Virus record (IMG/VR): IMGVR_UViG_2675903433_000022
Strand: one strand, 5' to 3'
DNA from: a virus
Taxonomy: Duplodnaviria > Heunggongvirae > Uroviricota > Caudoviricetes
DNA: 64,000 nt
Below, one piece after another: positions 7,080 to 18,612 of this stretch. Below the pieces are notes generated by a model. The model ran no database searches. It was not told the DNA's origin and worked only from the letters and a program-made list of their open reading frames with translations. The stretch's first letter is position 1, and every line of letters begins with the position of its first letter. The translations under genes were made by a program, and so were the position numbers.

Positions 7080-8180
7080 TCACACTGCGCGGAATGCGAT
7101 TTCGCCAGGTATTACTTCACCTTGCCAATACATTTGGGCAGCAACGCGATCTGCGAGGTCACGATAAATAGCCGTAAATTCGCTATCTGGACGACTAATA
7201 ACGGTTGGTGTTCCGTTATCCAGATCTTCACGAAGAGAGATATGAAGTGGCATTTGGCCTAACAACTGCGTGTTGTATTTCTCGGCCAGTTTCTGTGCGC
7301 CACCGGTGCCAAAAATTGGCTCGTGATGACCGCAGTTACTGCAAATATGCATACTCATGTTCTCGACAATACCGAGCACCGGAACCTCGACTTTCTCGAA
7401 CATCACAATGCCTTTTTTCGCATCGATCAACGCGATGTCCTGCGGCGTAGTTACCACAACCGCACCAGTTACAGGAATGTTCTGCGCCAGCGTCAATTGA
7501 ATATCACCAGTGCCCGGCGGCATATCGAGAACGAGATAGTCCAGATCAGGCCATAGAGTTTCCTGCAACATCTGCATTAACGCCTTGCTCGCCATCGGAC
7601 CACGCCACACCATCGCATTGTCGTCAGTTACCAGATAACCAATTGAATTGGTTGCCAGTCCATGAGACATAATCGGTGCCATGTGAGTACCGTCCGGTGA
7701 GGTTGGACGTTGGTTTTCCGCGCCAAGCATGGTTGGAATTGATGGCCCGTAGATATCGGCATCCAAAATACCAACTTTCGCACCTTCAGCAGCCAACGCC
7801 AGTGCCAGGTTTACCGCCGTGGAGGATTTACCAACGCCGCCCTTGCCTGAGCTGACGGCGATAATGTTCTTAACGCCATTAATGCCTGGTTGGTTTTTGA
7901 CGCGCTTAAGCGTGGCAATGTTGTACGACAGCTTCCAGTCGATAGCCTTTGCGCCAGTGATACGGAGCAGATCACCACTACATTGCTCTTTCAGGTCTTC
8001 AAAAGGCTTATTCCACACGAAAGGCATGATTAGTTCGACATGCAGTGTGTCATCCATCAACGCAACATGGTGTAACGCTTTAAGCGTAGTCAGGTTGTGT
8101 TTCAGGGTTGGGTGCTGAAAATTAGCCAGCGTACCGGCTACCATTGCTCTCAGGGCATCCGGCGATTTGGACTCGCTCAT
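7080..8180 (-). CDS. apbC: Fe-S cluster carrier ATPase ApbC/Mrp
   Basis: 366 aa; SSGKGGVGKSSTAVNLALALA Walker A, CSNCGHHEPIFG motif; ortholog-level similarity to enterobacterial Mrp; divergent from metG as in enterobacterial chromosomes. Confidence 0.9.
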   Translation of the reverse strand: MSESKSPDALRAMVAGTLANFQHPTLKHNLTTLKALHHVALMDDTLHVELIMPFVWNKPFEDLKEQCSGDLLRITGAKAIDWKLSYNIATLKRVKNQPGINGVKNIIAVSSGKGGVGKSSTAVNLALALAAEGAKVGILDADIYGPSIPTMLGAENQRPTSPDGTHMAPIMSHGLATNSIGYLVTDDNAMVWRGPMASKALMQMLQETLWPDLDYLVLDMPPGTGDIQLTLAQNIPVTGAVVVTTPQDIALIDAKKGIVMFEKVEVPVLGIVENMSMHICSNCGHHEPIFGTGGAQKLAEKYNTQLLGQMPLHISLREDLDNGTPTVISRPDSEFTAIYRDLADRVAAQMYWQGEVIPGEIAFRAV

Positions 8181-8337
8181 CCCGTCTCCTTTATTTTAAT
8201 TTGCGCAATTGTCGCCTTGTAGTGTACTCCAGCTACGGCATTTAATCATTTATGAGAAATGCTGTTATCACATGGCAGACATAAGGCCATTTTGTTACTA
8301 TCAAGCCCCTTTTCACTACAAAGAAGTAATGCCTACT

Positions 8338-10371
8338 ATGACCCAAGTCGCGAAGAAAATTCTGGTGACGTGCGCGCTGCCGTACGCTAACGGCTCAATC
8401 CACCTCGGCCATATGCTGGAGCACATCCAGGCTGATGTCTGGGTTCGTTACCAGCGAATGCGCGGCCACGAGGTTAATTTCATCTGTGCCGACGATGCCC
8501 ACGGTACGCCGATCATGCTGAAAGCACAGCAGCTTGGTATCACACCGGAGCAGATGATTGGCGAAATGAGTCAGGAACACCAGACTGATTTCGCAGGCTT
8601 TAACATCAGCTATGACAACTATCACTCGACGCACAGCGAAGAGAACCGTCAGTTGTCTGAGCTTATCTATACTCGCCTGAAAGAGAACGGTTTTATTAAA
8701 AATCGTACCATCTCTCAGCTGTACGACCCGGAAAAAGGCATGTTCCTGCCGGACCGTTTTGTAAAAGGCACCTGCCCTAAATGTAAAGCGCCAGATCAAT
8801 ACGGCGATAACTGTGAAGTCTGCGGCGCGACTTACAGCCCGACTGAACTGATCGAGCCGAAATCGGTAGTTTCTGGTGCTACGCCGGTAATGCGTGATTC
8901 CGAACACTTCTTCTTTGATCTGCCTTCTTTCAGCGAAATGTTGCAGGCATGGACCCGCAGCGGTGCGTTGCAGGAGCAGGTGGCAAACAAAATGCAGGAG
9001 TGGTTTGAATCTGGCCTGCAACAGTGGGATATCTCCCGTGACGCACCTTACTTCGGTTTTGAAATTCCGAACGCGCCGGGCAAATATTTCTACGTCTGGC
9101 TGGACGCGCCGATTGGCTACATGGGTTCCTTCAAGAATCTGTGCGACAAGCGCGGTGATACCACCAGCTTCGATGAATACTGGAAGAAAGACTCCACCGC
9201 CGAGCTGTACCACTTCATCGGTAAAGATATTGTTTACTTCCACAGCCTGTTCTGGCCTGCCATGCTGGAAGGCAGCAACTTCCGCAAGCCGACCAACCTG
9301 TTTGTTCATGGCTATGTGACGGTGAACGGCGCAAAGATGTCCAAGTCTCGCGGCACCTTTATTAAAGCCAGCACCTGGCTGAATCATTTTGACGCTGACA
9401 GCCTGCGTTACTACTACACTGCGAAACTCTCTTCGCGCATTGATGATATCGATCTCAACCTGGAGGATTTCGTTCAGCGCGTGAATGCCGATATCGTGAA
9501 CAAAGTGGTTAACCTGGCCTCCCGTAATGCAGGCTTTATCAACAAGCGTTTTGACGGCGTGCTGGCAAGCGAACTGGCTGACCCGCAACTGTACAAAACC
9601 TTTACTGATGCCGCTGAAGTGATTGGTGAAGCATGGGAAAGCCGCGAATTTGGTAAAGCGATTCGTGAAATCATGGCGCTGGCTGATCTGGCTAACCGCT
9701 ATGTCGATGAACAGGCTCCGTGGGTGGTGGCGAAGCAGGAAGGACGCGATGCCGATCTGCAGGCGATTTGCTCTATGGGCATTAACCTGTTCCGCGTGCT
9801 GATGACGTACCTGAAACCGGTACTGCCGAAACTGACTGAACGTGCAGAAGCATTCCTGAATACAGAACTGACCTGGGATGGTATCCAGCAACCGCTGCTG
9901 GGCCATAAAGTGAATCCGTTCAAGGCACTGTATAACCGTATCGATATGAAACAGGTGGAAGCACTGGTGGAAGCATCCAAAGAAGAAGTGAAAGCCACAG
10001 CTGCACCGGTAACTGGCCCACTGGCTGACGACCCGATTCAGGAAACCATCACCTTTGACGACTTCGCCAAAGTTGACCTGCGTGTGGCGCTGATTGAAAA
10101 CGCGGAGTTTGTCGAAGGTTCTGACAAACTGCTTCGCCTGACGCTGGATCTCGGTGGTGAAAAGCGTAATGTCTTCTCAGGCATCCGTTCCGCTTATCCA
10201 GATCCACAGGCACTGATTGGTCGTCACACCATTATGGTGGCTAACCTGGCTCCGCGTAAAATGCGCTTCGGTATCTCTGAAGGCATGGTGATGGCTGCTG
10301 GCCCCGGCGGGAAAGATATCTTCCTGTTAAGCCCGGATGCTGGTGCTAAACCTGGCCACCAGGTTAAGTAA
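8338..10371 (+). CDS. metG: Methionyl-tRNA synthetase
   Basis: 677 aa from [29 protein letters not shown] (HIGH motif), KMSKS present, C-terminal tRNA-binding domain; track ORF 8209 is an upstream in-frame extension. Confidence 0.95.
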
Positions 10372-10533: not shown

Positions 10534-10833
10534 ATGTTGAACATTACCCAAGCCTACCAGGTGGCATTGATCAGCTCATCTCATACATCAGAGGAAGATG
10601 CTCGCCGATTCATGATCGCAAGCAATGAGCTGGATTGGGTTTCACAAATTGAGTACGGTTGCATTGTCCACGCCGGGTTACAGGACGATGACTGGAAAGA
10701 TGAGTTGCGTCGATATGGTATATCCGAGGGCGCGATTGCGAACATTCAGAAAGTACTTGATGTAGGCTTTGACTCTGTACATTTTGATTGTGGCGCACCG
10801 GTCGTTGAAGGGCTTGAGTGCTGGCAATGGTAA
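10534..10833 (+). CDS. Hypothetical protein
   Basis: ATG with GGAG 8 nt upstream; 99 aa. Confidence 0.55.
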   Translation: MLNITQAYQVALISSSHTSEEDARRFMIASNELDWVSQIEYGCIVHAGLQDDDWKDELRRYGISEGAIANIQKVLDVGFDSVHFDCGAPVVEGLECWQW

Positions 10834-10869
10834 TCCGGCAATCGCTTCATACTAGATAACGGAGAATTT

Positions 10870-11055
10870 ATGCTTAAAGAAGACTCATATCTACTAAAGG
10901 CGCTTGAAATGCGTGGCGTTGAACCTACAGTGAAAAACGCTCACGATATCTACCTTCAGTTTTCGCCAGAGCTGAAACAGCTCATAAATAAATATGGAGT
11001 GAATGACTCCAGCGTCAAAGCCATGATAGATGATGAATTAGACCATCTCATCTAA
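10870..11055 (+). CDS. Hypothetical protein
   Basis: 61 aa; RBS acggagaattt before ATG. Confidence 0.5.
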   Translation: MLKEDSYLLKALEMRGVEPTVKNAHDIYLQFSPELKQLINKYGVNDSSVKAMIDDELDHLI

Positions 11056-11159
11056 CCAAACCGTTGATAATGGCGGTCACAATTTGATTCTTTTCTATAA
11101 GAATCCGTTGATCGCCACTACTCCCCTTCCATACCTGCAATCATATCCTTAAATATCAA

Positions 11160-11950
11160 TAGGTTATAGTTGTTTGCACAAACAAGAAAACAACTGAATA
11201 ACAGATCAACGAAACGTCAACGCTTTCTCCCGATTTGGTCTAAAAAATTGACGTTTTCACACATCACTTCTTATACCCGTAATTCTACGCAGCAGATAGC
11301 GCCACAGCGTTCAATTTTCACCACAGACGACTCAACACACTACCAACAAAAACACACGCTCAAAATCGCTCCCGTTGCGTTACACAACCATATAAACAAC
11401 TTATTTTCAGGTATAACAAAACAACTAAATAACACATACGCCATTACCAAAAACAACCAACCTCTTTATGGCAGGCTACCGAAAAGACCCACCTCTTCTT
11501 CCCAGGCTACCGGACAGCCAACCTAACTTTCACAGGCAATCCGAAAACATTCATACGCGCGATACCCACGACACGCCATTACCCAAACATCGAAGAAACA
11601 CCAGAATCACTGAAACCCCAACGAAGTCTGTAACCGCAAGGCTTCTCTCAATCCCAAAAGACACGAAACATAACAATCACGGGAAACGCCATTACCCAAT
11701 ACACGAATAACTACAAAAGCCCTTCACACACTCCAGACAAACAACTCAAACACAATAACGAAAGGAATAGCCCACCTGCCATTACTCCATATACGGAGAA
11801 GAACAATAACCATAACGACGAGAACACCCCATAGAAGAACCACCGCAAAACGAACGAAACCACATACACCGACAGAGAAAACAACACACCCAATCCACCA
11901 ACAGAAATAGTCGCCCTATAGAACGTTCTGGTAGGAGTGAGCATTAACGC
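11160..11950 (+). other. ORF-poor, strongly C+A-rich (G-depleted on plus strand) tract; possible non-coding RNA or origin-proximal region
   Basis: No ORF with an RBS; plus-strand composition skew visible by eye; terminator hairpin at 12035-12058. Confidence 0.3.
11457..11557. repeat. Three tandem ~30-bp direct repeats (CAGGCTACCGAAAAGACCCACCT-type), family 1
   Basis: Units read at 11472, 11503, 11533; related set at 14618-14705. Confidence 0.5.
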
Positions 11951-12034
11951 CTATAGAGAGGTTGAGACAGATAAAACACGAAGAAAACACAACATGTATA
12001 GCGAAGAAGCCAGGTATGTATAAGTGGGGAGGGA

Positions 12035-12058
12035 AGGAGGGGTGTCGCCTCCTTTTTC
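12035..12058 (+). terminator. Rho-independent terminator
   Basis: aggagg-ggtgtcg-cctcct hairpin followed by TTTTT. Confidence 0.5.
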
Positions 12059-12120
12059 GTATTTATTCAACTCCTGATTTTATCCCCCGTAACACCCCTA
12101 CGGTCAGCCTTCGGTCCATA

Positions 12121-12268
12121 CAGGGAAAAGGTTGCATCCCGCTACAGAAACGGCTGGATTGCCTTCGGGGAACGGCTGGAGGTTTTCAGGGAAACGGTCG
12201 AGCTGCCTTTGTGGATTTCGGGAAAAGGCTCGATGCCGGTTCAGGAACGGTGGCGTACCGGTATAGCG
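12121..12268. repeat. Six tandem ~22-25-bp direct repeats with core GGGAAA(C/A)GGCTG (iteron-like), family 2
   Basis: Cores at 12123, 12147, 12168, 12190, 12221, 12245; related set at 15304-15385. Confidence 0.5.
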
Positions 12269-12612
12269 AGAGAGAGTTGCGGCTACCCACCTGTAATGTG
12301 CGGTAAGAAGAGAGGCGCTCACGTGCAGGCGAACTTACTTACCGCTGGATTCCCTCTGAATGCCCAGCTACAGCGTAATTGTGCCAGACAGTCAGCGGGT
12401 CACAATCGATTTCAGTAGGTTTTCGGGGAGGGGATTATTCTGCCCACCAGCCATCTTCGGCCATTAAATCAGAATAATGTAAAAAGTGTACTCGGTACTG
12501 AACCTGAAAACTCACTGCCAAAACCACATTCACCGGAATAAAATCCTTTTTAGCCTTTGCGTTATTGCGATAATAACACCATCAAGAAAACATGTTGTTT
12601 AAGGATTGCTTT

Positions 12613-12942
12613 ATGTTTGCAAATATCGACATCAACCAAATCAAGAAAATGACTCAAAAAGAGTTTGACCAGTTTTATGAGCTGGAAGGTTGGTCTTCCA
12701 CTCTGATTAATTCAAGATGGGTGCTGGAACTGATGACTCGTGATGACGCACCTGCTTTGATGATCAGCGACCTGGGTGAAGATGCTGACTTTATGGATAT
12801 GAGCGAATTTTGTGTGGACACATACAACCGCAGCCAGAAGTACTACTTCACATGCGATAGCGAAAATGACGTGATTTCTAAGGTCTATCTTCACCTCGTC
12901 CAGCATTGGGACGTTCAGGAGTTTCTTGAAGTATTCGAGTAA
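12613..12942 (+). CDS. Hypothetical acidic protein
   Basis: ATG preceded by AAGGA (7 nt); track start 12592 falls inside the palindrome motif. Confidence 0.55.
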   Translation: MFANIDINQIKKMTQKEFDQFYELEGWSSTLINSRWVLELMTRDDAPALMISDLGEDADFMDMSEFCVDTYNRSQKYYFTCDSENDVISKVYLHLVQHWDVQEFLEVFE

Positions 12943-13096
12943 ACCCAACCAAAGCCAGCAATGCTGGCTTAACTTCATCTGTAGCCGCAGGGAAGAACCT
13001 GCATATCGCTCATGCGCCTGATCAATATGCTTTGTAGCCGTTTTCTTACTGGTATTATTTACGCCATTGAGAAAACAAGTTGTTTACGGAGTTGTG

Positions 13097-13408
13097 ATGA
13101 AAAAATCATTGGTTCTTGGTCTGGACAAAGACCAGAAGAGAAAAGAGAAGCCTGCACTGGTTGCTCAATTAACTTTGCTGGACATCGTTGCCAATGGGAC
13201 CTCTATTCGTCTGTTCCGTGAAACAGCGGTGTCTTTCGATAAAAACACCTTTACTCGTTATGTAATGAATGTTCGTCGCCAGCGTGGAAAAGGCTGGGTG
13301 GCATTTCAAAGAATGTGGCCGGAACATCAGCTCGAACTGGCTTTGATGGAAGTAAACCGCGTGGCCCAGCAAGAGATTCAGAGAGCATCAGTGATGGCAA
13401 TAGCCTGA
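13097..13408 (+). CDS. Hypothetical protein
   Basis: ATG with GGAG RBS, preceded by palindrome AAACAAgTTGTTT at 13073-13085. Confidence 0.55.
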   Translation: MKKSLVLGLDKDQKRKEKPALVAQLTLLDIVANGTSIRLFRETAVSFDKNTFTRYVMNVRRQRGKGWVAFQRMWPEHQLELALMEVNRVAQQEIQRASVMAIA

Positions 13409-13443
13409 TAATGTGCAAGTGGTAATTAGTCGACCGTACGACA

Positions 13444-13470
13444 GCCCCGCCATCCTTACGGGGCTTTTTT
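13444..13470 (+). terminator. Rho-independent terminator
   Basis: gccccg...cggggc hairpin plus TTTTTT. Confidence 0.6.
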
Positions 13471-13534
13471 GTATTGTAAGTACATACTTACGATCATAGA
13501 ATATAAAAATAACCAAGACACTACGGAGAGTGAA

Positions 13535-13930
13535 ATGACCGTTAAACGCGAAAAACTGACAGTTGATGTTTACTATGCCTCTGAAACCGCCGAAGGTAAG
13601 AATGTGGCAAAAATCACCGTTGTTACGTACAACACCGAAACTGGTGCCGAAGTACAGGCCAGTACGATCGTGCGTAAAGGTGATGCCTCCGGCGGCGAGT
13701 ACGCGACTCAATACCAGTCCATTCTCGATGCAACTGACCCGCTGCTGCTGAAAATCGAGAACTACTTCCGCCAGGTTGATGAAGAGGTGTTTGAAACCAT
13801 GATGAATATGGTTAACACAGTATTCGCCTCCAGCCTGAATACCAACACTACCTGGATTGGTCAGTACGGCCTGCGCATTACCTCCGGCATTCCTGCTGAC
13901 ACCTTAATCCCTGAAAGCGTATTCGCTTAA
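13535..13930 (+). CDS. Hypothetical protein
   Basis: ATG after ctacggagagtgaa RBS; track ORF start 13469 lies inside the terminator. Confidence 0.6.
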   Translation: MTVKREKLTVDVYYASETAEGKNVAKITVVTYNTETGAEVQASTIVRKGDASGGEYATQYQSILDATDPLLLKIENYFRQVDEEVFETMMNMVNTVFASSLNTNTTWIGQYGLRITSGIPADTLIPESVFA

Positions 13931-13941
13931 TCTTCTTTGAA

Positions 13942-13966
13942 TGGCGCGTAAACCGCGCCATTTTTT
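13942..13966 (+). terminator. Rho-independent terminator
   Basis: tggcgcg-taaac-cgcgcca hairpin plus TTTTTT. Confidence 0.6.
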
Positions 13967-14046
13967 ATGCCCGATAACAATTTGTTTTCTACCTTATCTG
14001 ATTTGTGAAAATGATTTCACTGAAGCAACTTAATAAGGAAACCATC

Positions 14047-14421
14047 ATGGGACTTGATATCTATATCGAGACACAGCCTAAAAACGATCTGAATAACGAG
14101 GCATCCAGAAAGCAGGTTGCTTACTTCCGTAAGTTCAATGCGCTCGTTGGGTGGATGGAGCGCAACGTAGGTGAAGTCGAAAATTGTGAGCTTTTAGAAT
14201 TAACGATGAATGACATTTGTTTTCTGAAGGCTCATTTGATGCACATAAACGAAAGTAATTGCGAAGAGTACTTGCCTACCCGGGAAGGCTTTTTCTTCGG
14301 CAGTCAGGAGTACGATGAAGGTTACTGGCATGACGTGGACAAGCTGAAAAAACTTGTGGAAGACCTGATCAGGAACCACGACTTTCACAATAACAGACTG
14401 ACGTTCTGCGCCTGGTGGTAA
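14047..14421 (+). CDS. Hypothetical protein
   Basis: ATG with AAGGAA RBS; track start 14005 lies in the promoter-like motif. Confidence 0.55.
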   Translation: MGLDIYIETQPKNDLNNEASRKQVAYFRKFNALVGWMERNVGEVENCELLELTMNDICFLKAHLMHINESNCEEYLPTREGFFFGSQEYDEGYWHDVDKLKKLVEDLIRNHDFHNNRLTFCAWW

Positions 14422-14573
14422 ATATGGGCGATTTCAAGAAACGCCTGAAGGAAAGAGCCGAGATGGTCAGAAAGCAAAACGCCTCTTCTGTCATCAGATA
14501 TGCAAGGCAGTTTAGTCGCAACAACAAATCAGTTGAGGAAAAGATCCTTAGCGTAATCGGGCGATAATTATTA

Positions 14574-14596
14574 AGGCCATCAGCATTGGTGGCCTT
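14574..14596 (+). terminator. Stem-loop aaggccatcagcattggtggcctt
   Basis: Third copy of the aaggcca...tggcctt hairpin family. Confidence 0.5.
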
Positions 14597-14617
14597 AAAT
14601 GACCATCCTGTTTCCCG

Positions 14618-14705
14618 CAGGCTAAAAACACCAACCTCTTACCTCCAGGCAACCGACAAACCCACCTGTTCCCGTCCGGCTACCGCAACTTTCCACTTTG
14701 ACGCC
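14618..14705. repeat. Three tandem ~30-bp direct repeats, family 1 (second locus)
   Basis: caggctaaaaacaccaacct / caggcaaccgacaaacccacct / cggctaccgcaac units. Confidence 0.5.
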
Positions 14706-14771
14706 TTATTCGTACAACGATAATTAACACCAACAAGAAAACAATTTGTTATTTACGATAAGGAATTAATC

Positions 14772-15254
14772 ATGAATTTTATCGCTACTGTAAACGCACC
14801 CGCACATGGCAATATCGTTGTAACGTTCTCTGACATTGAAAAACGAGTACTTGGTGCCTGGCGTCACAATGAGACGGTAGAACTGTCAGAACAAGAAAAA
14901 TGCATTATTTCACGCGACATCATTGGCAATCGTCGTTACTCGCGGGTATTTGAGAAAGCGTATGTGGTAAATTCTGGATTCGGAACGTTCGTCTTTCCGG
15001 TGCGCTCCGGGCGATTCTGCCAGTCCAAGCTGATTGAGTTCGCTACGCAGATTTCTGTCTGGATTAAAACTCAATCGTCGTTCAAATTTTCCGACGATGA
15101 AGCAGTATCGCAGGGGATGCGGATCGCCAACAATGCGATTAAATGCAAAAACATTACGTATACCGCTGGCGTTGATACATGGAAACTGTTTTGCGCTAAC
15201 TTTATGCTGAATGTATACGCAAGCAACCGCATCCACATCCTTGATGGCGTGTAA
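14772..15254 (+). CDS. Hypothetical protein
   Basis: 160 aa; RBS ataaggaattaatc; preceded by palindrome site 14739-14751; followed by terminator. Confidence 0.6.
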   Translation: MNFIATVNAPAHGNIVVTFSDIEKRVLGAWRHNETVELSEQEKCIISRDIIGNRRYSRVFEKAYVVNSGFGTFVFPVRSGRFCQSKLIEFATQISVWIKTQSSFKFSDDEAVSQGMRIANNAIKCKNITYTAGVDTWKLFCANFMLNVYASNRIHILDGV

Positions 15255-15263
15255 CTGAGAAGA

Positions 15264-15285
15264 GGGCCAGAAACGGCCCTTTCTC
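15264..15285 (+). terminator. Rho-independent terminator
   Basis: gggccagaaacggccc hairpin plus T-rich tail; the hairpin itself contains the GAAACGGCC core. Confidence 0.55.
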
Positions 15286-15303
15286 TATAGCCACCAGCTG
15301 CCG

Positions 15304-15385
15304 CAGGGAAATTTTCAGAAACGGCGAGGAACGCATTCATGAGCCGACGGGAAACGGCCAGGATTTTTTCGGGAAACGGCTGCAT
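15304..15385. repeat. Tandem GGGAAACGGC-core repeats, family 2 (second locus)
   Basis: Cores at 15306, 15319, 15350, 15372. Confidence 0.45.
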
Positions 15386-15870
15386 TCGCCTTTGTGTAGA
15401 AAAAAACATCGGGAAGCTGGTGGAATCCAACCAGCGGTTGTCGGACAGGTGAGCGGGGAAAATTATGATGACTTTCGTCGCCTGAGACATCCAGATTTCT
15501 TTCGTAGCGTAATCACATACGTGATTAAGTGGTGTGATTATGTGAAAAATCACGCGCACATAATACGCGAGCGGATACGGAACAAAACAAAATGCCGATC
15601 CGCGCCGACAATTAAACGCGGACACATAGCAAGAATAAAAGCCAATGATTAACCATACACCATAACGCAATATAACGCGATTTAAGCGCGTTAATGCGCT
15701 AAGTAATGGGTATGTACTGGTAAGGATATAAAAGCGCGTCTATGGCGTTATTTTGGCGCTTATTTTTATGTTGTTGGCTTGAGTCAAAGACAATAAAAAA
15801 AGCGCCATCATTGGCGCGTTATGGTGGAAGTATTGGAAACGAAAAAAGCGCCCATAGTGGGCGCTCGATT

Positions 15871-16101
15871 TTATTTGTGTAAACTGATTTTAAATCCCAT
15901 TTCTACAAACGCTTTTAACATTAAAAATATATCAGCGTCGTTCACGTCTGCTTTTTTTCGCTCCTGGTCGCTCAATAAGTCAATTTTGCGCGTCGTTTCA
16001 TCTATAAGCTCGACTGCGCGCCCAGCGTAACCAGCGATCCCAGCGATGCGATTAACATAATATTCATTATGGACGTTAACGCCAGCGATAAGAACAAACA
16101 T
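15871..16101 (-). CDS. Hypothetical small protein in AT-rich island
   Basis: 76 aa; RBS ttaaggagcttaatc before ATG on minus strand. Confidence 0.5.
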   Translation of the reverse strand: MFVLIAGVNVHNEYYVNRIAGIAGYAGRAVELIDETTRKIDLLSDQERKKADVNDADIFLMLKAFVEMGFKISLHK

Positions 16102-16120
16102 GATTAAGCTCCTTAAAAAA

Positions 16121-16324
16121 TTAAATAGAATTTTGAAGTTTTCCGATTAATGCGCTTAAACGTAAGTATTCACGTTTACGCTTGCAATCTCGCTTGTTGT
16201 TAAGCAAATCAGAAAACGTAAAATTTAATTGGTCGCGTTGCGCGATCAAATCATCGATTAATTCCAGTTTATAAGCGCGATACTTTGCGCGATATTCCGC
16301 GCGGATCTTGTCATAGCTGACCAT
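16121..16324 (-). CDS. Hypothetical small basic protein in AT-rich island
   Basis: 67 aa from MVSYDK; RBS aaaggag 8 nt upstream; track ORF extends to 16369. Confidence 0.45.
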   Translation of the reverse strand: MVSYDKIRAEYRAKYRAYKLELIDDLIAQRDQLNFTFSDLLNNKRDCKRKREYLRLSALIGKLQNSI

Positions 16325-16372
16325 CTTTAAAGCTCCTTTAAAGCGCCCACTATGGGCGCTTGATTCCATTAA

Positions 16373-17618: not shown

Positions 17619-18143
17619 TCAAAAAGGCAAAATTCGCTCAACCCAATCGAACAAAACAACTATTTTTCTACCGTTCTCGACACGTAGTGTAACCTGACAA
17701 GCATCTGCGCCTGCTGACACTCCCTCAATTTCACGGCCATCCGCCATGTACACCCTTATAGATTTGTTTGCTTTGTAGGCTTGGTTGCAAATTGCAAAAA
17801 AATCGCGGCGTGATGGCCGATTATCGACATAATCAGGGTGAACTGTTAGTCGACCTTTGAAATCGTGAGCGATACTGTCAACCACACCTGATTCAATTGT
17901 ACTAATGCGTTCAAGTGGGAGCCTTATACGATTTTCTTTATCAAAAGGGGCTGGGCAAAGGTCAACTTTGTTACGAGATGGCATGAGGCCATAAACGTAC
18001 ATGCAAAACGCCTGGCCATCTTCGAGAGTGACCCTTACAGGAATTTGTTCTCTGCGCCAGAACATCAGTAGTTTTTCAACGTTAGTGTAATCTCGCGGCC
18101 AGAGTTCAGCTTGGATACCGTAGGTAATATCTTTGGTTGTCAT
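17619..18143 (-). CDS. Hypothetical protein
   Basis: Start MTTKD directly after the upstream stop; track ORF to 18221 overlaps the upstream gene. Confidence 0.5.
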   Translation of the reverse strand: MTTKDITYGIQAELWPRDYTNVEKLLMFWRREQIPVRVTLEDGQAFCMYVYGLMPSRNKVDLCPAPFDKENRIRLPLERISTIESGVVDSIAHDFKGRLTVHPDYVDNRPSRRDFFAICNQAYKANKSIRVYMADGREIEGVSAGADACQVTLRVENGRKIVVLFDWVERILPF

Positions 18144-18147
18144 GTCA

Positions 18148-18612
18148 TCACAGAGTTGTTGGCAGAATGTCGATGTCACCAGAATTGCTGGTGAACACCC
18201 TGAACGCTTTTGTGTCTCCATTCTTCAGAGTCGTTTCTCGCTCTTGACGAGCGGGGTTTAGAGCACATAAACCTGCACCTTCAAGAGATGCACCCACAAT
18301 TAATTCTCCGGCATTTAAATGGAAAGTCGCTTTTTCGCCTGTAGCCAGTTTTGCGACAGTTTCGCCGTTGATGAAAATGGAAGCATCACATCCAGCTCCT
18401 ACAAAACCTGTGTCTCTCATTACCACCAACGTAGCTGGCGCTGCGCTTTGATACTTGAACACTTTGGCCTGCGGTGCTGGTTTGGCGTCATGGATTGATA
18501 TTGGGCGTGATTGGCACGCGGTAAGCATCAACACTGGTAACGTTAGTAGAGGGAGAAGCGAGTATTTCATGATAGTTTTAGAACAGAAAGTGAACAGTAT
18601 GGGAGACTTCAT
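18148..18612 (-). CDS. Putative lipoprotein
   Basis: Signal peptide with lipobox LTAC (…LPLLTLPVLMLTAC); RBS agggagacaaag before the first ATG; a shorter start at MKYSLL is possible. Confidence 0.6.
   Translation of the reverse strand: MKSPILFTFCSKTIMKYSLLPLLTLPVLMLTACQSRPISIHDAKPAPQAKVFKYQSAAPATLVVMRDTGFVGAGCDASIFINGETVAKLATGEKATFHLNAGELIVGASLEGAGLCALNPARQERETTLKNGDTKAFRVFTSNSGDIDILPTTL

Follow-up and report, generated by a model that had tools for sequence, protein, structure and literature searches.

A gene-free block of 1.5 kb, kept in hundreds of SSU5-type phage-plasmids, is non-coding and, judged by the comparison of its lineages, is under selection both for its sequence and for its strand composition. 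We read it as a conserved control region whose core would act at the RNA level on rightward (plus-strand) transcription, and we tentatively propose, giving the idea somewhat less than an even chance, that its C/A-rich tract serves as an insulator or attenuator on whose untranslated RNA Rho loads, with a conserved stem-loop on one side and a hairpin on the other. The window, that is, the whole 64 kb stretch of DNA analysed here, is an SSU5/pHCM2-like phage-plasmid with 96% identity to Escherichia phage Cyrano. Clinical Escherichia, Klebsiella, Salmonella and Enterobacter commonly carry phage-plasmids of the SSU5/pHCM2 type, and cargo such as resistance genes sits at exactly the variable site bordering the block. 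The conserved 1.5 kb are currently flagged by no annotation pipeline, and a literature search found no paper on this region (a preprint on phage-plasmid heteroresistance concerns a different family).

The block was found in 838 plasmids of PLSDB and in 237 of 5426 complete E. coli genomes. Its left edge, placed at 11057 in the initial annotation, proved to be exact: the conservation among relatives rises there from 0.54 to 0.86, directly behind the upstream gene's stop codon. To the left of the block lies a hot spot for the insertion of variable cargo genes, here the host-derived mrp and metG plus small genes, and this flank differs in every lineage. On the right side lies a set of small genes, each with its own promoter adjoining a shared palindrome, and these genes 3' of the block are conserved. 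Shortened copies of the block in large Klebsiella plasmids turned out to be only remnants cut by IS elements or transposons, and are uninformative on function. The individual features are listed in Table 1.

Table 1. Features of the gene-free block and of the region 3' of it, with positions in the window
Feature	Position	Strand	Remarks
Two-tier stem-loop directly 3' of the upstream stop	11071-11117	+	MFE -29.1 kcal/mol, z = -2.5 versus shuffles
C/A-rich, G-/T-poor tract	11160-11950	+	One uninterrupted C>G bubble (10997-11965); skew kept in every relative; non-coding
Best-conserved block	11180-11285	+	Column identity 0.91-0.97
Copy of the 13-bp palindrome AAACAAnTTGTTT	11394-11406	+	One mismatch here
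Dispersed direct copies of (A/T)CGCCATTAC(C/T)C.A.A..CGGAGAAGAAC	11440, 11575, 11688, 11778 (within 11440-11785)	+	Copies compared in four lineages
Three tandem 31-nt units ACC.ACCTCTT.......CAGGCTACCGAAAAG	11451-11543	+	Column identity 0.88-0.92
G-rich/pyrimidine hairpin and T-run	12031-12058	+	In this lineage a canonical intrinsic terminator
Array A, six direct units C(A/G)GG(G/A)AA(A/C)GG(C/T)	12123-12265	+	Spacing 22, 22, 22, 31, 22 nt
Promoter plus leader, first downstream gene	12566-12615	+	Extended -10 TGCGATAAT (12566-12574)
Array B, sister of array A	15305-15430	Same sense as A	Same unit, 3 kb downstream

The tract is the most skewed part of the 64 kb, and the depletion in G and richness in C and A that had been pointed out for its plus strand are borne out by the base frequencies (A.392, C.301, G.133, T.174, compared with A.282, C.218, G.248, T.251 in the whole window). 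Skew calculated in sliding windows of 700 nt, a check that had been suggested with the initial annotation, goes down to -0.45 for GC in the tract (window mean +0.06, sd 0.08), the next most negative value elsewhere in the window being -0.17, and the AT skew reaches +0.47. All lineages retain a GC skew of -0.2 to -0.5 and an AT skew of +0.3 to +0.6, even those at only 60-68% identity. Where lineages differ at a column, the G content is for the most part still lower than the average of the window, and A<->C exchanges rank with the most frequent types of substitution in the tract. Between the window and SSU5, the identity of the tract is 68%, versus 37% for the fourfold-degenerate sites of a neighbouring gene. 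Neither DNA curvature nor a 3-nt periodicity was found in the tract. Given its strand asymmetry, the tract probably functions as a single strand read rightwards, which fits a transcript better than a duplex DNA site.

Only short ORFs are present in the block, and they differ among relatives of 96% identity, in agreement with its description as ORF-poor. The statement that the ORFs lack ribosome-binding sites and start at non-ATG codons was partly correct: two of them do begin with ATG (11468-11710 on the plus strand and 11711-11944 on the minus strand), but neither has a Shine-Dalgarno sequence. Substitutions are even over the three codon phases (e.g., 86/88/76), indels of 1, 2, 10, 11 and 23 nt break the reading frames, and no PGAP gene lies in the block in the plasmid records inspected. 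The tract is kept among relatives without codon periodicity, the pattern that had been looked for, and there is good support for reading this as something other than a protein gene. Unusual proteins of low complexity (one or several), encoded for instance by the 118-aa and 80-aa plus-strand ORFs or by the hydrophobic 77-aa minus-strand ORF, would agree with the presence of ORFs of 77-118 aa and with the hypothetical proteins annotated here in some phage records. We consider this very improbable, because the position and frame of the annotated ORFs are inconsistent among records of 92-96% identity, substitutions have no third-position bias, the ATG at 11468 of the 80-aa ORF is missing from the other lineages of alignment A1, and the FPKM is zero in LB.

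The plus-strand RNA of the tract folds poorly. Its MFE in 150-nt windows ranges from -6 to -22 kcal/mol (window mean -37.3, sd 7.4) and the tract includes the six least structured of such windows in the 64 kb; the foldability of the minus-strand RNA is within or near the normal range. With C>G bubbles defined as 78-nt windows with %C >= %G on the non-template strand (PMC6144790), a single uninterrupted bubble of ~970 nt extends from 10997 to 11965 with an area of 15232 %xbp. It is the largest bubble on either strand of the window and has 4.5 times the size of the next largest on the plus strand. In vitro, Rho caused termination on every tested template whose bubble exceeded 78 bp or 700 %xbp (PMC6144790), and the area of the bubble described here is ~22 times the size above which this happened. 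Rut sites are located in C>G-biased, weakly structured regions, and the primary binding site of Rho prefers A and C (PMC12360218). The tract shows three features of a Rut region, namely a C>G bubble longer than 78 nt, weak RNA structure and untranslated RNA. Its YC density is 12.3 per 100 nt versus 9.6 in the window, with five chains of six suitably spaced YC. A conserved periodicity of C or YC above that of shuffled sequence was found in none of nine lineages, and the C/YC spacing signal is borderline and confined to this window (peak 7.4 versus a shuffle 95% value of 7.2).

In the mechanism that we propose, a polymerase arriving from the left would transcribe the stable entry stem-loop first and after it an untranslated stretch of ~0.8-0.9 kb whose RNA, rich in C and A, poor in G and nearly free of structure, is of the kind that Rho prefers as a substrate. 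Rho would load on this RNA and the transcript would be released, exonucleases would trim the unstructured 3' tail back to the stem-loop, which would protect the trimmed end, and the hairpin at 12031-12058 would serve as a back-up stop. As a net result, the tightly controlled phage module downstream would be insulated, or conditionally attenuated, from upstream transcription. The entry stem-loop, with an outer stem GGCGGTCAC/GTTGATCGCC, an inner stem GATTCTT/AAGAATC and the apex UUUCUAUAAG, corresponds to about 94,285-94,330 of Cyrano and recurs in the predicted folds of almost every lineage; the distant relative L056 has a stem of wholly different sequence (TCAACCTCTC/GAGAGGTTGA), yet a hairpin and the TTTCTATAAG loop are retained. 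At the other end, the terminator noticed in the initial annotation at 12035-12058 was recovered by the scan as a 10-pair stem (12031-12057) followed by a T-run. A hairpin is predicted at this position in all lineages, and in the SSU5-type lineages it is not followed by a T-run. We infer Rho as the acting factor, insulation as the selected function, and any roles given here to the embedded repeats.

A published stranded RNA-seq data set for the Cyrano lysogen of E. coli LF82 (S1 Table of PMC9928086; GEO GSE154648) covers both sides of the tract entry. CYRAN_102, which ends 110 nt before the tract, is expressed at 45-590 FPKM, and CYRAN_103, which corresponds to the first half of the tract, at about 0-14 FPKM. 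The RNA falls more than 100-fold across the entry; no intrinsic terminator is predicted between the two. The tract is therefore not an abundant non-coding RNA in lysogeny, and it looks more like a site where transcription ends. Of the long non-coding transcript that had been put forward for this region, the strand asymmetry remains in agreement, but a lysogen with a 96%-identical element contains essentially no RNA of the tract. CYRAN_105, the gene downstream, goes up in expression although the tract remains silent, and thus has its own promoter.

Some observations count against an insulator. The drop occurs within 110 nt, faster than usual Rho action, and thus either the assumed 3' trimming or an unrecognised stem-loop terminator is needed. 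Rho loading needs ~80 nt, which leaves the retention of ~800 nt unexplained, as it does the sequence-specific islands, namely the GCCATTAC copies, the 31-nt CAGGCTACC repeats and the promoter-like 11180-11285. In addition, the genes upstream of the block are oriented away from it in the Klebsiella and L007 lineages, so in these there is at present nothing to insulate against. Like Rho-dependent terminators and Rut sites (e.g., lambda tR1 and leader attenuators), the tract is untranslated, C>G-biased, A/C-rich and barely structured, it follows the end of a gene, and in vivo the transcript from upstream stops there. Unlike a normal Rut site, however, this putative Rho site is ~10 times longer, includes conserved repeats together with a promoter-like block, and is kept as a whole in different genera. 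In the leaders of temperate elements such as P4 timm and P1 icd-ant, untranslated RNA lets Rho stop transcription before the lytic genes; these leaders are short and under known antisense RNA control, whereas no such antisense RNA and no sequence similarity to them were found here. A true insulator would be built-in and sequence-independent, explaining how arbitrary cargo can be taken up without derepression of lytic genes, and the tract would be an unusually large natural Rho-loading module as well as a ready-made part for synthetic biology.

The islands within the tract could also belong to a regulated long non-coding RNA gene, whose promoter-like block would be kept off in lysogeny by repression and become active on induction. 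Its product, ~750 nt of C/A-rich RNA without structure, would have its end at the 12031-12058 hairpin and act as a sponge for a single-stranded-RNA binder, with the repeated motifs as binding sites; proposed targets are Rho, Hfq, the FljA-family regulator of the element, and an RNA-cutting defence or toxin nuclease. We regard such a gene as unlikely. The region 11180-11285 contains a AAGAAAACAA box, TCAACG repeats, an inverted repeat AAACGTCAA/TTGACGTTT, an A-tract and, 3' of the latter, a promoter-like pair, TTGACG (11248-11253) and TTATAC (11271-11276), separated by a 17-nt spacer. Both hexamers and the distance between them are invariant among the lineages, whereas roughly half of the bases in the spacer change; this extends to the distant L056, where the counterpart is TTGACA-17-TTATAC. 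The palindrome AAACAAnTTGTTT, found at the promoters or in the 5' leaders of many of the element's operons, also occurs within the tract; SSU5, Klebsiella and other lineages have a perfect copy there. The repeated islands are better conserved than the rest of the tract: L056 has CAGGC three times at ~30-31 nt in correspondence to the 31-nt units, the dispersed (A/T)CGCCATTAC motif is found in five or six copies in SSU5-type lineages, and four of the seven GCCATTAC copies in the 64 kb are located in the tract region, where 1.7 are expected. The terminator at the tract end and the silence in lysogeny, which is compatible with a repressed promoter, are likewise in line with an RNA gene. However, the candidate -10 is poor, with no T at -7, and the consensus promoter scan does not report the site at 11248-11276, and an untranslated RNA of such composition should itself be shortened by Rho.

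As for the possible targets, a gene of the FljA family (PF03614, E = 2.5e-84, with a weak Hfq-like match) lies a few kb downstream of the block, and the same holds for L056 and L057, the two distant relatives examined. Proteins of the FljA type block the translation of fliC mRNA (PMC2652032), but when compared with the FljA target, the 5' leader of fliC, the tract and the promoter leaders score no better than shuffled sequences (shared words ACCCAATAC and ATCAACGA). ARN-type Hfq motifs are at the level expected from composition, with two runs versus about one expected. Covariance models of Rfam 15 gave no match in the window at the gathering score and only chance-level matches in 10800-12800, and a scan for tRNA and tmRNA with ARAGORN found nothing. 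CsrB and RsmZ (which bind CsrA) and CrcZ (Hfq/Crc) are likewise non-coding, several hundred nt long, and carry many copies of short motifs, and the units of array A contain GGA as in CsrB/RsmZ. The region differs from these sponge RNAs in that the GGA units are not in conserved hairpin loops, no Rfam match is found at E <= 10, ARN-type motifs are not above composition and the tract RNA is absent in lysogeny. Array A was also considered as a structured CsrB-like sponge and rejected, as it forms no conserved hairpins (the consensus fold has an energy of -13.3 kcal/mol, and its covariation term, +0.5, gives no support). In the more specific form of the RNA-gene reading, which we hold to be quite improbable, a decoy of ~0.75 kb with repeated motifs would be made after induction from its own repressed promoter and would tie up a host single-strand-RNA machine, with Rho as the leading candidate. 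A Rho decoy would be an RNA-only route to relieve the Rho-mediated silencing of phage genes, and the alternatives would be Hfq, the element's own FljA/Sm-like regulator or an RNA-cleaving defence nuclease.

The suggestion of a replication or packaging element found little support, apart from the two iteron-like arrays. A cis element at the DNA level, e.g., a lytic replication origin or a locus of the copy-control or partition type, is in our view rather unlikely. In such an element, phage proteins would bind the 22-bp units of arrays A and B, the 31-bp units and the GCCATTAC sites, and the skewed strand would stay unstructured when unwound or displaced in an R-loop, so that helicase and primase could load; the element encodes a UvsW-like helicase, an RNase H, a DnaB-type helicase and a primase. 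The spacing within array A is close to whole helical turns, the array lacks a conserved RNA fold, and it gains and loses entire units between lineages. Moreover, arrays A and B bracket a gene block, as incC and incA bracket repA in P1. Against a DNA element, the 22-bp repeats are unlike the iterons of the element's own RepA (IncFIB), which are of the CTCTCTATAGTGGAT type with 21-bp spacing, and an assignment to RepA was rejected for this reason. There is no DnaA box and no outstanding AT-rich unwinding block in 11057-12590, the units of L056 are spaced by 28, 24 and 34 nt and thus are not helically phased, and a pac site is unlikely because the terminase genes are 12 kb away. The model of the 160-aa protein beside array B is confident (pLDDT 88), but no PDB structure matches it at E <= 0.001, and a PDB sequence search gave no significant match (best E = 0.7), so that neither hints at an initiator; the other proteins between the arrays have no Pfam match. 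Finally, binding sites in duplex DNA leave the single-strand bias over 800 nt and the A<->C exchange unexplained. If the block were a decoy RNA or an origin instead of the insulator that we prefer, it would stand for a core function that annotation has missed in a widespread mobile-element family.

Iteron arrays of the P1 and F type (incC/incA, incB/incC) resemble the arrays described here in having direct repeats of ~22 bp, in the gain and loss of entire units, and in forming two same-sense arrays around a gene block; they differ in that no recognisable initiator gene lies between the present arrays and that the spacing is not conserved in the distant L056. Towards its right end, the block passes into the leader of the first downstream gene, in which the palindrome AAACATGTTGTTT (12588-12600) and AAGGA are followed by the ATG at 12613.

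The gene-free block of 1.5 kb at 11057-12590 has as its core a C/A-rich, G-poor tract (11160-11950) with base fractions of A.392, C.301, G.133 and T.174. In 700-nt windows, the GC skew of the tract reaches -0.45, about 6 sd off the window mean (the next lowest value elsewhere is -0.17), and its AT skew rises to +0.47. The depletion in G and the richness in C and A described in the initial annotation are thus borne out, as is the terminator hairpin near the tract end, which has 10 pairs and is followed by a T-run. The ORFs were likewise found to be only short, but the claim that all of them start at non-ATG codons did not stand, as two begin with ATG. That the block is no protein gene agrees with the absence of codon periodicity in the substitutions, which between lineages 60-86% identical are spread evenly over the three codon phases (e.g., 86/88/76), with indels of 1, 2, 10, 11, 21, and 23 nt between the same lineages, and with the "hypothetical proteins" of phage records, whose position and frame differ among records 92-96% identical. 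The NCBI pipeline called no gene in the block in the plasmids inspected, and neither Rfam families nor tRNAs matched it. The non-coding status of the block is therefore solid, and a protein-coding block is highly improbable.

By its sequence, the window source is a phage-plasmid of the SSU5/pHCM2 type. The block is 96.5% identical to positions 94269-95803 of Escherichia phage Cyrano, a plasmid-prophage of E. coli LF82, and 67-72% identical to Salmonella phage SSU5 and Klebsiella phage-plasmids. PLSDB has 838 plasmids with related sequence (Klebsiella, Escherichia, Enterobacter, Salmonella, Citrobacter, and Cronobacter), and among 5426 complete E. coli genomes 237 carry it, plasmid-borne in every case. 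The block is without annotation in the RefSeq plasmids inspected, and no description of it was found in the searchable literature. Contig JAEWTL010000044.1, from a MAG labelled Bacillota, matches the E. coli-type block with 97% identity or more across no less than 1.3 kb; it probably comes from an enterobacterial phage-plasmid and was mis-binned. The left edge of the block can be placed exactly: across 27 non-redundant relatives, conservation rises from 0.54 to 0.86 at 11057, directly past the upstream stop codon. On the 5' side lie the host-derived cargo genes metG and mrp and two small genes, and on the 3' side, in order, conserved small genes, regulators, a UvsW-like helicase, ParB-like genes, and packaging and structural genes. 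The divergent mrp(apbC)-metG pair (7080-10371) has the layout known from the E. coli chromosome, which suggests capture of host DNA, and occupies a variable cargo site immediately left of the block; MetRS is annotated also in Cyrano and PhiR41_1.

Sequence comparison indicates that the block is under selection for both sequence and composition. The skew is kept in every lineage, also in L056, a distant relative with only 51% identity in the flanking protein, and in columns varying between lineages G is mostly under the window average. A-to-C and C-to-A transversions are among the commonest substitution classes (the top class in two of three lineage pairs), so that keeping A or C matters more than the choice between them. 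Identity of the tract is 68% to SSU5 and 69% to Enterobacter, compared with 37% and 40%, respectively, at fourfold-degenerate sites of a conserved neighbour gene; the same comparison with Klebsiella is blurred by mosaicism.

RNA of the tract plus strand folds at -6 to -22 kcal/mol in 150-nt windows, against a mean of -37.3 (sd 7.4) for the 64 kb, and the six least structured windows of the 64 kb are all among them, whereas minus-strand RNA, at -24 to -38 kcal/mol, is within or near the normal range. The full 783-nt tract RNA folds no better than shuffled sequence (z = -0.6). As only the plus strand is unusually unfoldable, the selected property is an unstructured plus strand, indicating either a rightward transcript or a displaced plus strand; the neighbour genes, exit hairpin, and promoter-like block all lie on this strand. 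Rut sites are C>G-biased, weakly structured, and untranslated RNA, the primary binding site of Rho favouring A and C (PMC12360218), and above a C>G-bubble area of 700 %xbp every template tested terminated with Rho in vitro (PMC6144790). Scored by the 78-nt definition of the latter study, the tract is a single C>G bubble (10997-11965) of 15232 %xbp, about 22 times that level and 4.5 times the next largest on the plus strand. YC density in the tract is modestly raised, and neither C nor YC shows a conserved periodicity there.

In stranded RNA-seq of the LF82 lysogen (log2(FPKM+5), S1 Table of PMC9928086), CYRAN_102 is high and CYRAN_103 nearly silent, so transcription, or at least stable RNA, stops at the block entry in lysogens; the stretch from CYRAN_102 to the tract has no predicted intrinsic terminator. 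From this profile, the tract is silent in lysogens and the downstream genes are driven by their own promoters. We tentatively read the block as an untranslated insulator or attenuator that loads Rho and separates the variable cargo site from the conserved palindrome-bearing gene module; the entry stem-loop would serve as a protected 3' end, with the exit hairpin as back-up stop. Rho-dependent termination in an untranslated leader is the most economical mechanism and of a known kind, although, compared with known terminators of this sort, the block is unusually large, conserved, and composite. This reading explains composition, strand, lack of structure, position, and RNA-seq, and leaves the 800-nt length, the conserved repeats, and the promoter-like block unexplained.

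Features of the block and its surroundings, with expression of the corresponding Cyrano genes
Feature	Position	Strand	Details
Two-tier stem-loop (entry)	11071-11117	+	exposes UUUCUAUAAG
Most conserved section	11180-11285	+	identity 0.91-0.97
Palindrome AAACAAnTTGTTT, copy within C/A-rich body	11394	+	from alignments
Three tandem 31-nt units	11451-11543	+	each ends CAGGCTACCG; from alignments
GCCATTAC-type units	C/A-rich body		four copies; five or six in SSU5-type lineages
G-rich hairpin (exit)	12031-12058	+	canonical terminator in this lineage
Array A (direct repeats)	12123-12265	+	six C(A/G)GGAAA(A/C)GGC units, spacing 22, 22, 22, 31, 22 nt
Less conserved stretch	12270-12560		replaced in SSU5 and Citrobacter
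Promoter and leader of first downstream gene			TGCGATAAT, palindrome AAACAAnTTGTTT, AAGGA, ATG, in this order
AAACAAnTTGTTT sites, 0-1 mismatch	211, 5453, 10457, 10508, 11394, 12588, 13073, 13975, 14739, 23853, 23878, 54801, 57731
CYRAN_102	ends 110 nt ahead of tract		45-590 FPKM (PMC9928086)
CYRAN_103	11170-11526		0 FPKM in LB, <=14 elsewhere (PMC9928086)
CYRAN_104	array A region		about 1-20 FPKM (PMC9928086)
CYRAN_105	first downstream gene		climbs to about 200 FPKM, independently (PMC9928086)

The anatomy was read from the lineage alignment A1, the 27-sequence alignment, and L056. In L056, the stem sequence of the entry stem-loop is wholly different, with hairpin and loop retained. The most conserved section contains a AAGAAAACAA box, TCAACG repeats, the inverted repeat AAACGTCAA/TTGACGTTT, an A-tract, and a promoter-like TTGACG-17 nt-TTATAC, whose hexamers and spacing are invariant across lineages while the spacer sequence varies. 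The exit hairpin has as counterpart a hairpin without T-run in SSU5-type lineages and, in L056, a 200-nt G-rich, C-poor block (L056 3100-3290; Logan SRR23468752) with GC skew +0.55 and many GGG runs, matched in the window by just a short G-rich hairpin (12017-12045). The promoter-like block, the terminator, and the motif islands would be accounted for by a lytic-phase long non-coding RNA started there and serving as decoy for an RNA-binding factor, a reading that we consider unlikely and against which the poor -10 speaks. The product of the gene at 17619-18221 (minus strand) belongs to the FljA family ("repressor of phase-1 flagellin", PF03614, E = 2.5e-84) and shows a weak Hfq-like match at residues 146-188; both distant relatives examined (L056 and L057) encode a homologue. 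In LF82, expression of this gene is low in LB and rises about 10-20-fold in the other conditions, also inside macrophages. Given that FljA-type proteins block translation of fliC mRNA (PMC2652032), this nearby product is a candidate binder. A link between the tract and the fliC leader failed statistically and was rejected.

Between lineages, array A gains and loses entire units. Its helically phased repeats, and the recurrence of their unit in array B (15305-15430), which places the small-gene block 12592-15254 between two arrays, would fit a role at the DNA level, for instance as lytic origin or control locus. We regard this, too, as unlikely: the repeats are unlike the RepA iterons beside the element's own repA, their phasing is lost in L056, the block has neither DnaA boxes nor an unwinding element, and duplex binding sites do not account for a single-strand composition bias. 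Nor is an initiator recognisable, as the one flanked protein modelled (160 aa, 14772-15254) has a confident AlphaFold model (pLDDT 88; mixed beta-sheet/helix fold) to which Foldseek matches nothing in the PDB at E <= 0.001. The remaining probability goes to readings other than those discussed here.

The 13-bp palindrome AAACAAnTTGTTT occurs, with at most one mismatch, at no fewer than 13 intergenic sites in the window, and allowing up to two mismatches gives 19 matches compared with 6.3 expected. It usually stands about 13 nt past a GATAAT-type -10, just ahead of the Shine-Dalgarno of many small genes, or else directly past plus-strand terminator hairpins. Judging from this placement, it likely serves as operator or leader element for a regulon not described before, of which the tract is probably a member.

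The 160-aa protein (phrog_1641) is conserved and confined to these Enterobacteriaceae phage-plasmids. Array B, built on the same 22-nt unit as array A (CGGGAAACGGC...), has been kept in SSU5, Klebsiella, and Enterobacter relatives; it lies in gene-free 15255-16370, and after it comes another non-coding region, which contains AATCACA boxes and several hairpin/T-run terminators. An inverted repeat, CCACCAGCTGCC/GGAAGCTGGTGG, brackets array B at 15291-15302 and 15412-15423; it is conserved in Klebsiella and SSU5 relatives and is the Chi octamer GCTGGTGG in both orientations, with a further reverse-orientation Chi at 12446-12453.
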